Shown: one piece after another, positions 17,568-62,255 of the stretch | Numbering within the stretch: the stretch's first letter is position 1 | Layout: each line of letters begins with the position of its first letter | DNA from: Eledone cirrhosa | Taxonomy: Eukaryota | NCBI GenBank assembly: GCA_964016885.1 | Contig: OZ024750.1 | Coordinates: 4,650,001 to 4,714,000, forward strand | Direction: 5' to 3' | DNA: 64,000 nucleotides | Translations under genes and position numbers: made by a program | The notes under the pieces: generated by a model | Told to the model about the DNA's origin: nothing | The model's database searches: none | Seen by the model: only the letters and a program-made list of their open reading frames with translations

Positions 17568-17753
17568 AACAAAGGAATTGTGGTAAGGAACCAGAAGGAC
17601 CATAACGCACCAGAGTACTCAATACTAGTAGAGTGGGAAAAAGGAAAAAGTATGACCCCGACGGCAGAGCTCAAGCCGTTTCGACGGCTTTAGTCCAGAA
17701 ATAGCCGTCGAAACGGCTTGAGCTCTGCCGTCGGGGTCACACTTTTTCCTTTT
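17568..17753 (-). mobile_element. Fold-back insert family A copy 1
   Basis: 51-bp arms 17639-17689 and 17703-17753 (1 mismatch), 13-nt loop, about 70-nt tail, (TA)n both sides. Confidence 0.85.
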
Positions 17754-17784
17754 ATATATATATATATATATATATATATATATA

Positions 17785-18098
17785 TATAATATTATTCAAA
17801 ATATTAATAAATGAGAAATATTATCATAACCAAAGTATATATTTTATTATACATATTTCAAAGGTACAATGGTGTTTAAGTACGTTTTCATCAGATAAAA
17901 TATATAAGAGATTGGATATGCGACATACCGCTAAGGTACTTGAATCTTCAATTCCTGTAGTGGCACTACAATCTCTTATATATTTTATCTGATGAAAACG
18001 TACTGAAACACCATTGTACCTTTGAAATATGTATAATACAATATATACTTTGGTTATGATAATATTTCTCATTTATTAATATTTTGAATAATATTATA
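17785..18098 (+). mobile_element. Fold-back insert family C with hammerhead-like core
   Basis: 130-bp arms 17785-17914 and 17969-18098 (2 mismatches seen), 54-nt loop; CTGATGA-AAACGTACT-GAAA at 17989-18008. Confidence 0.75.
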
Positions 18099-18412
18099 GA
18101 TACTCCAGAGAAAGATCTGTCGAGTGCTTCTAATCTATTGACTTTCGGAAACATTTTTTCACGCTCAGAGTTGCTGAAGCATGGAACAAACTACCTGCAT
18201 CGGTTGTTAGCTGTCGAGACATTGCATCCTTTAAAACCTCCATGCTTCCCGAGATTCGCCAACACTACACCTAATGTTCCCCCTCCATACACTATTCACT
18301 TCCCTGACATTTGTGTATTATTCTATGAACTATACATGCACCTTTGACGAGTTGTAGTGCACCTGAGCACTTTACACAATAATTTCATTATTATTATTAT
18401 ATTATTATTATT
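18099..18412 (+). mobile_element. CR1/L2-type LINE 3' end with (ATT)n tail
   Basis: 18140-18274 translates DFRKHFFTLRVAEAWNKLPASVVSCRDIASFKTSMLPEIRQHYT*, matching the CR1 ORF2 C-terminal motif R..FF..RV...WN.LP..VV......FK; 3' UTR ends in (ATT)n. Confidence 0.9.
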
Positions 18413-18480
18413 GTAAAATTGAATTCGTTGAATAATCAACGAACCATATAAACTTTTGGTTATATATATATATATATATA

Positions 18481-18751
18481 TAGGAACCAGTAAGACCCCG
18501 ACAGCTGAGTTCAAGCCGTTTCGACGGCTAATTCTTGACAATCATTTTGACCATATATGGAATTACCCCTTGAGAAGATCGGCTATTTAAATACCAGGAT
18601 AAATTTTCATTTAGTCCAGAATTAGCCGTCGAAACGGCTTGAGCTCAGCTGTCGGGGTCTTACTGGTTCCTATTACCCACTCTACTACCCCAAGTATTGA
18701 GTACTTTGGTGCGTTATGGTCCACCTGGTTCCTTACCACATTTCCTTCGTT
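18481..18751 (+). mobile_element. Fold-back insert family A copy 2 (longest)
   Basis: Arms about 18481-18539 and 18614-18672, about 75-nt loop, 78-nt tail, (TA)n both sides. Confidence 0.85.
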
Positions 18752-58189: not shown

Positions 58190-59525
58190 ATAAAGCACAC
58201 ACGTTCACTCCAGATCCCACAACTACAACACACGCACCTATGCACGCGATATCGAATCACACGACACACACACACACACACATATATATATATATATATA
58301 TATATACTTACACACACATACGTACATATATAATGTGCCGAAACACACACATACATACATATATGTGCTGAGACAAACATGCATACATATATAACGTGCT
58401 GAGACACACGCGCGTGTAAGTGCGAGCAAGCTATATACATTTGTATACACCAAATCATACGAGAGAATATACGTGCAGTGTGCATGTAGAGAGATTGGCG
58501 AGCACACGCACACACACACAGGCGAAGGCGCATACACACAGGCGAACATAAACACACACACGCACACAGGCGAGCGCGCATACACACAGGCGAACATAAA
58601 CACACACGCGCACACAAACGAGCGCGCATATACATACAGACACACGGGTGAGCGCGCACAGACAGGAGCACACTAGTGCACATATGCTACAAGTACGTGC
58701 AATACGTGCAGCACACAAGCAACTGCATGCATATAATCACAGACACACAGGTATATAAGCACACATGAACATATACATATGACTACAATATACACATGCA
58801 TCGCGGTGTGTGTGTGTGTGTTCGTAACATACGAACTCATGGAAAACACAGACACACACCACGTGCAAAACTGGTCGTAAACACACATATACATGCATAT
58901 ATATGTGTATGTGTGTATAAACACACACAAACATTGTATATACAATATATATAATACACACACGCGTTGTGATATATATTCACTGGCAAAACGCGCGCGA
59001 ATAAACGTATAAGAGCGTAAATACACACAAAAATTTTTGTATTTACACATATACACACACGAGCGCAAAAATGCTCGTTACTACACACGCATATATGTGT
59101 GTGTGTGTGGATATCTCTCTCTTGATATATATATAAAGCACTTAAGTACATCAGCTCGTATCCAAAACACATAAGGCGACATGCATACACACACATGCAA
59201 GGCGATATGTTTGCTCGCCACACGCTTACACACAAACTGTGAGGCAACATTTTGCACTTACACATGCATATCTGTTCACATAAATATGACACACGTAGAC
59301 ACACATACACATTGTGATGCAATATTTTGCATTTACATGCATATCCTCTCACATAGATACGGTGCGAAAGCATACACACCACCCACACACACACGCAAGA
59401 ACATTCACAAGCACACACACATACACAAACACTGTGAGGCAATCTTGCAACATATCTGCTCACACAAACATGCACTCGTGCAAAACACGTACAGCACATA
59501 TGCAGACACACATGCACAATAAGCG
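58190..59525. repeat. Degenerate (CA)n/(CGCA) low-complexity tract
   Basis: Directly visible; CpG-rich. Confidence 0.85.
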
Positions 59526-61025
59526 ATAGTAACAAGTGAAAAGCTACCAGTTGTGTGGGAGGCTATATATATATATATATATATATATATATATTCTGTG
59601 GTCTGTGGTAGTGGTCACGGCCAGGTTGTAAGTACATGCAAGGTTATCTAAACTACTCTGACAAACTCAGCTGATTCCGATCTCATGTTATAAATAGTTG
59701 GAAGCTACTGATCCAGCGATTCCACACACACACACACACATTATATATATATACATACATACACACACACACAATTTCCCCGGCCCCTCTGCAGTGGGGG
59801 GGGGGGCATTAGCGACGGCCGTAGCAATTTATTTGTGCCCTCAGCTGGGGTTTTTAGTTTGGGGGCGGTTAGCATTTTTTAATTTAATACCTTATGTATA
59901 TGTAAAATTGGAGTGGGGGTTGCTGCATATTCTAATTGTTTGTGTATGAGGGTCCCCCAAACCTGAAGTACACCCCCCCCCCCCGGTCTAAATCCAATCC
60001 CGTGTGTCATTTACTATAGCTTCGGATCGACAGAAACTTTGTAAGCCGGCTGGTTGAACTTTAGCTGTAGTCCAGAGGACGAATTGTTTTTACACACTGT
60101 GTCATATTGAGAATTACATTCAGGGTACATGTGCCTGTGGAATGCTCACCAACTCATGAGGATCATAGGTTGGTTGCTATTTTTAACAGTTCTATTAAAA
60201 AAAAAACTCAGAAGCCCCGTCACGAAGACGACAAACTAAAACATTCGTCGTCGAAACCGACGAAACTCCAATACCTCTGGCTTTGATTGAAAACACGCCT
60301 GACCATTGGCAAAATACGGTTATTATCACTGTCGCTATTTCTCAAGAAAACATACGATCAAAACCGTTCCTACCTCGTCCTTTTTGTTTCTTTAAGATTA
60401 CATTATTATCCTAAGTGGCTTTCCGTTTTTAAGACGGTAGTGTATGATGAGGGATATTTCGCTGCTATTTCTAGCAGATCCAACGACTAAGTTTACTAGA
60501 CGGACCCTCCTTCACCGCTTTACGTTGCTTTATTTATTTATGCGAGCACTCACCTGTATATATATCTGTACTGAAATACTTAGGAATGTACTTAAACGTA
60601 CGACTTGAAATAGTTCAAGCAGAACGTTACCAACATCAACCACATCGGTTTGTTAGAGTCTATGGGGGTTACAGGCATCACAGTCTGTAGTGAATTACGG
60701 GGCGTGGATGATGAATGACTGGATGGTAGCCAGAAGCCCTACAATATTTAAAGAGCTCGAAATTAATTGTTTTGGCTATTATAAACAATACGCAAGGGAT
60801 CTAATCCCAGCTTAATCCGCCTCTTGGATACAACCCCTTTCCCCAAACCAACACACACACAAGGAGATACGTGAAAACAGTTTGCACACAGTTTGTGTGT
60901 GAGTGTGAATATGTGTGTATGTTTTTAATAGTGACTATTTACTTCAAAGTTTCGCTGGCGTTACCTACTTTTCAAAACAGTAATGAGTCTTCTAGTTCTT
61001 GGGTCGGACGCCATGATTTGCAACA

Positions 61026-61215
61026 CAGAGTTACGGCCCTTTATAATCCGAGTTCAAATCCCGCCGAGGTTAACTTTGCCTTTCATCCTTACGGGGTCGA
61101 TAAAATAAAGTACCAGTAACGTACTAGGTCGATTTAATCGACTTTCTGGGGTCGATTTAATCGACTATCCCCTCCCCCAAATTACTGGCCTTGTGCCTAT
61201 ACTAGAAATCATTAT
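61026..61215 (+). mobile_element. SINE family 2 (5' truncated)
   Basis: gagttcaaatcccgccgagg...cttacggggtcgataaaataaagtaccag; internal duplication of ggtcgatttaatcgact. Confidence 0.85.
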
Positions 61216-62063
61216 AGTTCATGAATAGAGTGTATATTACACACATACGTAGAACCTCATACACACACTCAGCCCTTAGAAACCAGAGACCGGAACCCAA
61301 AATAATCACTAACAGACAAACAAATAGATAGATAGATAGATAGGGGTGTGTATTAAAAGGCATGTGAAGAATGTGAACTGATAACTCAGTGTAAAGCTAT
61401 GCAGCTGTTGGAATCAGTGGATGGCAGCAGGCTTTAATATCTTGTCTCCTGTCTCTTCTTTGTCGCAACAGACTAGTGAGAGAATGGGGCGAGAGAACAT
61501 ATACCTCTGATAGTGTCCTATTGTTGTCAATCTGGCTTGTTGCTACAAAATGGAATGTTAGCAACAACTTACTCACAGAGTCAAATATTGGAAGGGGACA
61601 GCCAAATATTTGTTGTAAAAACCCCCACCCAACGAAACTAACCCTCATAACTTAATTAACACTTTTGTTACCGCATTCCTAATGAAATACACAACCTCAT
61701 CTGTTTGAATTTATTTTGAAAGTAATGAAAAATTTTAGAGGAATTTAATAAAGTATATTTAATATATATATAGCTAAAGATTGACAGCAACAACTTACAC
61801 GAACACACACACACACACGGAGAAATATCGGAAGAGGTCAACAAATATTTATTGCATGAAACTCCACCCAACAAATGTATCATAATAATGTAATTACATT
61901 AACAACACAAAAGACAAAGGAAGGATCCTCTATGGGGGCATACAATGTGCTAGAAATAGAAGCTAAATTATACCCTTCTTATCCTTACTTTAACCTTTTG
62001 TTACCATATTTCTAATGAAATACATAACCCATTCGTTTAAATTAGCTGAATATATATATATAT

Positions 62064-62255
62064 ATAGGAAAATGTTTAACCCCGACGGCAGAGTTCAAGC
62101 CGTTTCGACGGCTAATTCTGGACTGAAATAGCCGTCGAAACGGCTTGAGCTCTGCCGTCGGGGTTAAACATTTTCCTATTACCCACTCTACTACCCTAAG
62201 TATTGAGTACTGGTGCCTTATGGTCCATCTGGTTCCTTCCCACACTTCCTTTGTT
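62064..62255 (+). mobile_element. Fold-back insert family A copy 5, nested in MITE P2 (61994-62432)
   Basis: 51-bp arms 62064-62114 and 62129-62179, 76-nt tail, short (TA)n both sides; host MITE bounded by TTAA 61990-61993 and 62433-62436. Confidence 0.85.

Follow-up and report, generated by a model that had tools for sequence, protein, structure and literature searches.

Small hairpins in Eledone cirrhosa as head-to-head truncated ends of a Hydra-type Penelope-like retrotransposon, probably built at insertion by two primings

Five small hairpins lie in a stretch of 64,000 nucleotides of Eledone cirrhosa DNA (the window: assembly GCA_964016885.1, contig OZ024750.1, positions 4,650,001 to 4,714,000 of the forward strand), and their arms match within a copy but differ between copies. 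The locus raises the question of how each pair of arms came to share one sequence. A sequence-only reading had proposed that each hairpin is made at insertion, by self-primed synthesis or template switching up to a fixed RNA terminus, with arm-to-arm gene conversion as an alternative. Here, the five hairpins are assigned by motif features to the 5'-truncated, head-to-head ends of a Hydra-type Penelope-like element (PLE) inserted in (TA)n. Each probably arose at insertion, when one RNA was reverse-transcribed twice; this RNA would mostly be capped and start about 140 nt upstream of the tail end of the element.

The five hairpins and their parent element

The arm-base motifs occur once each in the window, at 17639, 18481, 33317, 55348 and 62065; they are mirrored exactly in copies 2 and 5, and with one or two differences in copies 1, 3 and 4. 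All five copies sit in (TA)n (the short arm of copy 4 adjoins (CA)n), and each consists of a long arm with a tail, head to head with a short arm. In copy 1 (17568..17754), the tail arm is in sense orientation on the minus strand (17568-17690) and the short arm on the plus strand (17691-17754), and the 13-nt loop is short-arm sequence. Copy 2 (18481..18752) belongs to the youngest subfamily, with the short arm on the minus strand (18481-18535) and a longer tail arm on the plus strand, to 18752; this arm and the 3' 226 nt of an intact element share 97% identity, and the 75-nt loop is tail-arm element sequence. Copy 3 (33229..33441) has a tail arm on the minus strand with a 9-nt duplication, a 7-nt untemplated junction, and a short arm on the plus strand. 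Copy 4 (about 55283..55466) represents a more distant subfamily, with a deletion in the tail and a 3-nt junction; like another copy (L097, 1774-1788), it carries other sequence at the turn. In copy 5 (62065..62255), the short arm, on the minus strand, stops at an A that we take to be initiator-like, and the tail arm, on the plus strand, starts 6 nt further in and has a 78-nt tail.

These structures bear out most of the description in the sequence-only reading, including short arms that end at CCTA(T), tails of about 64–88 nt, and loops of 13, about 75, 7 and 3 nt; the fifth loop measures the reported 14 nt if no A/A mismatch is allowed in the arms, and 6 nt if one is. The arm variants do differ between copies as described, but they are mostly subfamily markers common to many copies rather than private marks; the arm type of copy 5 has 1,176 exact matches in the genome.

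A core 18-mer of the repeat has 58,954 exact matches in the 3.0 Gb genome (reversed control, 0); with two arms per insertion, the family comprises roughly 30,000 or more insertions. A search with the copy 2 loop led to longer copies that run into a frame for reverse transcriptase (RT) and endonuclease (EN), and a protein search of the genome recovered many such frames of 784 codons. Twenty stretches around these frames revealed partial tandems (pseudo-long terminal repeats, pLTRs) of a unit that measures about 3,530 bp, often with an additional inverted truncated copy. By motif reading, the single open reading frame (ORF) encodes an RT plus, at its C terminus, a GIY-YIG EN, with LRWR at 36, SDKT at 116, YRDD, a CxCx5C linker (CNCPDRSIC, 572), CxxC (CNLC, 670), CxH (CKH, 698) and VIY..YIG; no cysteine pair is read inside the GIY-YIG core. 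Pfam and PDB sequence searches with the element protein returned no match, and the domain names rest on these motifs. Pieces of other Penelope-type RT/EN frames join or flank ends of the family in two of the sampled stretches (L056:1960-3070 and L058:308-754).

The element combines an RT and GIY-YIG ORF, pLTR partial tandems, an inverted 5'-truncated copy, a one-sided tail and a type I hammerhead motif, as do EN-containing (EN+) PLEs. Its C-terminal EN, RWK-type and DKT motifs, CxCx5C, CxxC and CxH, absence of CCHH and (TA)n target agree with the features described for the Hydra clade. The Naiad clade, which has an N-terminal EN and no canonical hammerhead, is ruled out by the C-terminal EN and the hammerhead motif. 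Non-LTR (long terminal repeat) retrozymes, which are non-coding hammerhead monomers, were also rejected: the parent codes for protein, and most short arms carry only the 3' half of the motif.

The 3' end of an intact copy is predicted to fold as a three-stem type I hammerhead. In copy 2, a complete motif spans 18565..18658 on the plus strand, within the tail arm, with the cut predicted after 18653. Among 49 distinct natural variants, the core has U3-A8 in 42 and C3-A8 in seven, and N7 is variable; U3-A8 is one core variant described for PLE hammerheads (PMC4209133; here and below, published work is cited from the accessible parts of each paper). An Rfam scan of copy 2 gave no match, hammerhead included; the Rfam matches seen (150 of 240 listed) were of microRNA families to simple repeats or hairpins only, below the gathering score. 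One subfamily (L070, L112, L113, L120, L052 and L060) has the C3-A8 mismatch in its core yet is widespread, and its spread is in line with cleavage that may be dispensable for insertion.

The turn and a candidate RNA start site

Few copies lie within 200 kb around the window, and the family was thus sampled from pattern matches on one contig (C1), which favours less diverged copies. A short set comprises 122 two-arm copies, sampled by position and pattern, about half of them chosen by inner-end pattern. A young set, from the youngest subfamily (98–100% identity to the intact element), has 92 mapped inner ends and 84 parsable junctions, or 83 after removal of one duplicate. A long set holds 21 insertions, seven sampled by position and 14 selected for RT. 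Positions are given as d, the distance from the tail end, measured in a natural copy (L165).

The turn, which had been described as variable, is strongly clustered rather than free: 73% of young-set arms have their ends within d133-144, and these ends form an edge at d140. The base at d140 is the A of TT(T/C)AGTC (18613 in copy 2), and lies 29 nt after a TATA-like word. By comparison with promoter consensus words, we take this A to be initiator-like and the upstream word to be TATA-like; together they would form a candidate core promoter, at 18584..18617 on the plus strand of copy 2, within stem/loop II of the hammerhead. In arms truncated at d140, the base before it is often an untemplated G, whereas the 85 arms that cross the hammerhead have T (75) or C (10) at this place, and never G. 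The first untemplated base is of the G type at 13/16 ends at d140 vs. 17/44 other ends (p 0.007), and an extra G stands at 5/13 joints at d140 vs. 0/21 at d139 (p 0.005). Genome-wide, 5,420 ends at the d140 edge carry G and 890 the other untemplated base (A). An untemplated 5' G has been credited to copying of the cap for L1 and SVA (PMC3287187), and the extra G at the turn suggests run-off at the 5' end of a capped RNA. The sequence-only reading would thus have the roles reversed: the fixed end of the short arm appears to be a start site for synthesis, and the turn the RNA terminus.

The sequence of events that we consider probable is as follows. The GIY-YIG nuclease of the element would cut both strands of the TA repeat. 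Priming would follow at two fixed sites that read TA(T) and so match the target: d0, where the repeat unit ends in its tail, for one DNA end, and d80, lying 80 nt upstream, for the other. The usual template would be a likely capped transcript with its start inside the hammerhead, only some 140 nt upstream, such that the two complementary DNAs (cDNAs) reach the end of the RNA after about 140 nt and about 60 nt, the cap often being copied as an extra base. The cDNA 3' ends would then be joined via 0–2 nt of microhomology or a short insert. Long insertions likely arise from longer-than-unit templates, either read-through multimers or circles.

Two insertions switch, at about d137-139, into the ORF, where one of the pieces stops again at d137. 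L227 and L272 (contig C1) have template-jump structures in which the d139-to-tail piece is preceded by a 5' ORF piece whose own start is near d137 or d129. As the main run-off point, the hammerhead cut site (d99/100) was considered and rejected: the tail arms that stop nearby do so at d102-106 and thus contain sequence 5' of the cut. A few bases 3' of both start sites, a similar small hairpin can be drawn (4 bp, a 2-nt bulge, 4 bp) (L165:3836-3958; window 62172-62214), with weak folding support (z -0.65 to -1.88).

A different account retains twin priming but drops run-off from one capped RNA: the enzyme would stall at the loop II hairpin, or at a protein bound there, in a longer RNA, or would copy a pair of RNAs from one locus, linked through a protein dimer or a palindromic loop III. 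A predicted hairpin does have its 3' foot at d137-146, and arm ends spread across d133-144, as stalling might produce; for two RNAs, the Poseidon protein has been modelled as a dimer (PMC11167929) and hammerhead dimers formed via a palindromic loop 3 have been described (PMC4209133). Stalling, however, does not account for an extra G specific to d140, and the long arms continue past this hairpin and across the entire hammerhead. Long arms also pair with long arms: in the 21 long insertions, a set partly selected for intact RT, no arm ends at d133-144. We regard stalling or paired RNAs as unlikely. In 17 intact frames, the partial unit upstream stops at 126-2,541, in no case at d133-144. Taken together, both arms would follow one template class, and long insertions would need a longer-than-unit RNA.

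Origin of the two arms

Self-primed fold-back, in which one cDNA snaps back and copies itself to a fixed stop, is contradicted by the tail arms. In 11 of the 83 young junctions, the tail arm ends at d92 or less, at or before about the outer end of the short arm (in one case opposite a 590-nt inner arm); these tail arms are without most or all of the short-arm sequence, and the short arm thus cannot be their copy. Furthermore, at the turn the short arm is the longer in 47 of 84 young junctions, by up to kilobases, with the tail arm longer in 24 and both equal in 13, and zero-loop palindromic centres are common (32 of 50 insertions listed). Fold-back would explain that alleles are common to both arms and that some long insertions turn nearly alike in both (1696/1696, 3142/3158), and snap-back has been observed with R2 proteins (PMC11371274). 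As a general route it is nonetheless largely refuted, and we consider it very unlikely, apart from a possible contribution in a minority, such as long near-perfect palindromes. Palindromes of this kind, six kb in length, together with a four-unit tandem that has a short inverted arm, were seen in L176, L177 and L181-L182.

The distribution of stops is consistent with two primings on a shared template. A stop short of d130 occurs in 24/83 tail arms vs. 6/83 short arms (p 0.0005), as would be expected if the d0 product must displace the d80 product on the same RNA. Equal arm ends are over-represented (32/45, p 0.008).

That the hairpin is made at insertion, as the sequence-only reading held, is upheld by the junctions and the arms. 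Loops are distinct in 99/122 copies of the short set, and junctions in 71/84 of the young set. One tail end and one inner end are found in 122/122 short copies and 95/98 of a mixed set; among the 92 young inner ends, 81 have this geometry, nine were unresolved and two are other. Both arms derive from the same source: they share the subfamily in 115/122 copies (random expectation 0.25), and the mean distance of an arm to its own partner is 0.045, vs. 0.123 in 2,000 shuffles (minimum 0.106). In 18 long insertions (L175 was left out, its junction not being parsed), the arms differ at 35/15,685 shared sites, and 79 minority alleles are mirrored. There was no signature of RNA editing among mirrored rare variants (0 A>G of 8).

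Mutations after insertion are not mirrored, which argues against the arm-to-arm gene conversion suggested earlier: in 63 copies of four older subfamilies, unmirrored private non-CpG changes amount to 2.9% per arm vs. 3.1% in the unpaired tail, and mirrored private changes to 0.44%. The same figures speak against a non-autonomous hairpin element, either like a miniature inverted-repeat transposable element (MITE) or a master hairpin, that is copied whole and then undergoes loop decay and conversion between arms. Such a unit is highly improbable: it is favoured by the recurrence of small loops (at most 5/122; 703 insertions in three centre-length classes) and by an arm-specific G/A difference in the first 30 matches, but the recurring loops occur in both orientations and across subfamilies, so that sharing of identical loops does not reflect inheritance as a unit; the G/A difference was a query bias (5/100 rows, three inner and two tail); the junctions differ from copy to copy (71/84 distinct) among copies that are 98–100% identical to the intact element; and the asymmetric ends, with no terminal inverted repeat at both outer ends, rule out a MITE or class II foldback unit.

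Several observations weigh against twin priming on one capped RNA. The G excess is modest in the class with a 2-nt gap (32/94 ends), the partner arm could supply part of the 5,420 G count (17/41 local G cases), and among first inserted bases, read on the cDNA, C is the most frequent at other ends as well (17/44). The pile-up of arm ends coincides with the foot of the predicted loop II hairpin, many arms end at d133-139, which calls for trimming or scattered starts, and the TATA-like word differs between subfamilies. The excess of perfect palindromic centres could stem from a joining preference or later trimming. The arms are discordant in subfamily in 7/122 copies; those of L229 (1010-1200) resemble two different subfamilies and may be a true chimera or a two-RNA event, and rare insertions have a tail at both ends (L015) or at neither (L057). 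More generally, the genomic copies show the parentage, the geometry of the ends, the range of junctions, the common source of the arms and the position-specific extra G, and from them are deduced the order of priming, the use of one RNA molecule instead of two from a single locus, the start site, the promoter, the cap and any ribozyme activity.

A more far-reaching proposal, which we judge could equally well hold or fail, is that the capped mRNA of the element itself has its start within the hammerhead, 60 and 140 nt upstream of the two RT start sites. Most insertions would then be abortive twin-primed hairpins, and productive full-length copies would derive from read-through or circular RNA alone. 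Every hairpin would be a fossil record of the kind obtained by rapid amplification of cDNA 5' ends, preserving the start site plus the cap G, and direct genomic evidence of a Penelope enzyme dimer that uses a single RNA as template at the two ends of a break.

The window contains other repeats besides this family. A second, unrelated palindrome of about 300 bp, with arms of about 90% identity, lies between copies 1 and 2 (17793-18090), and a string that resembles a hammerhead core stands at 17989. Six more hairpins, at 16197-16324, 33742-33855, 31230-31341, 63393-63518, 19023-19192 and 3604-3983, are probably other Penelope-type families, and several of them adjoin (TA)n; hammerhead-core-like strings occur near 16257 and 33697 (minus strand) and 2716 (plus strand). 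Tandem repeats span 7797-8498 (39-nt units) and 44802-45880 (71-nt units).

Comparison with known systems

The closest described elements are those of the Hydra clade of C-terminal EN+ PLEs, which includes Hydra-1_Obim from octopus (Craig et al., 2021; PMC8557442). The present element has in common with this clade RW(K/R), DKT, the CxCx5C linker, CxxC and CxH, the lack of CCHH, a hammerhead near the 3' end and a (TA)n target. It differs in unit length (generally <3 kb in the clade vs. about 3.5 kb here) and in the tail (30–40 nt vs. 80 nt here). Because its U3-A8 core and long stem II differ from the hammerhead listed for Hydra-1_Obim, it is a separate, new family within the known Hydra kind.

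The inverted pLTR and one-sided tail of EN+ Penelope elements have already been published (Arkhipova et al., 2013; PMC3846280; PMC8557442), and an inverted 5'-truncated copy was noted for Penelope-13_HM (PMC8557442). Head-to-head 5'-truncated copies, a tail at one end, palindromic junctions and partial tandems are the same here; the clustered turn with an extra G goes beyond that work, as far as its accessible parts extend. Earlier proposals for this architecture were self-priming (Arkhipova et al., 2013) or EN-mediated resolution (PMC3846280; PMC8557442), whereas the junction statistics of the present family favour two primings. The origin of PLE inverted repeats and one-sided tails has been called open in the literature. 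In this family, natural products number in the tens of thousands, many of them very young, their start sites fixed and their junctions countable. The question thereby becomes specific: whether each strand uses one start site, whether a single RNA serves each insertion, and whether the 5' end is capped at a given base. It would account as well for genomes littered with tiny hairpins, which pipelines could mislabel as MITEs or microRNA precursors.

In vitro, Poseidon of Anolis uses two internal RT start sites that bound the tail, with no difference between the strands reported; both strands of an AT-rich target are cut and extended, hammerhead cleavage is not needed, and products are shorter with a shortened RNA 5' end (Frangieh et al., 2024; PMC11167929). 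Two start sites around the tail, extension of both strands and an AT-rich target are likewise seen or expected here; unlike the present analysis, the accessible text of that report contains no treatment that we found of inverted products, of the pairing of one site with each strand, or of a cap. The literature searched, which left out most subscription papers, yielded no account of twin priming or of a cap-derived G in Penelope elements. The inverted architecture and the in vitro start sites are already known; the present family adds a natural set of insertions that can be counted, and a cap-like G where the arms turn.

The closest mechanism is the twin priming of L1, in which the second priming is from the other DNA end and the inversion junction is end-joined (PMC11702581), and L1 and SVA also have an untemplated G at full-length 5' ends (PMC3287187). 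In L1, the site of the second priming varies and there is hardly any overlap between the two parts, whereas in the E. cirrhosa family both sites are fixed and about 60 nt are copied twice.

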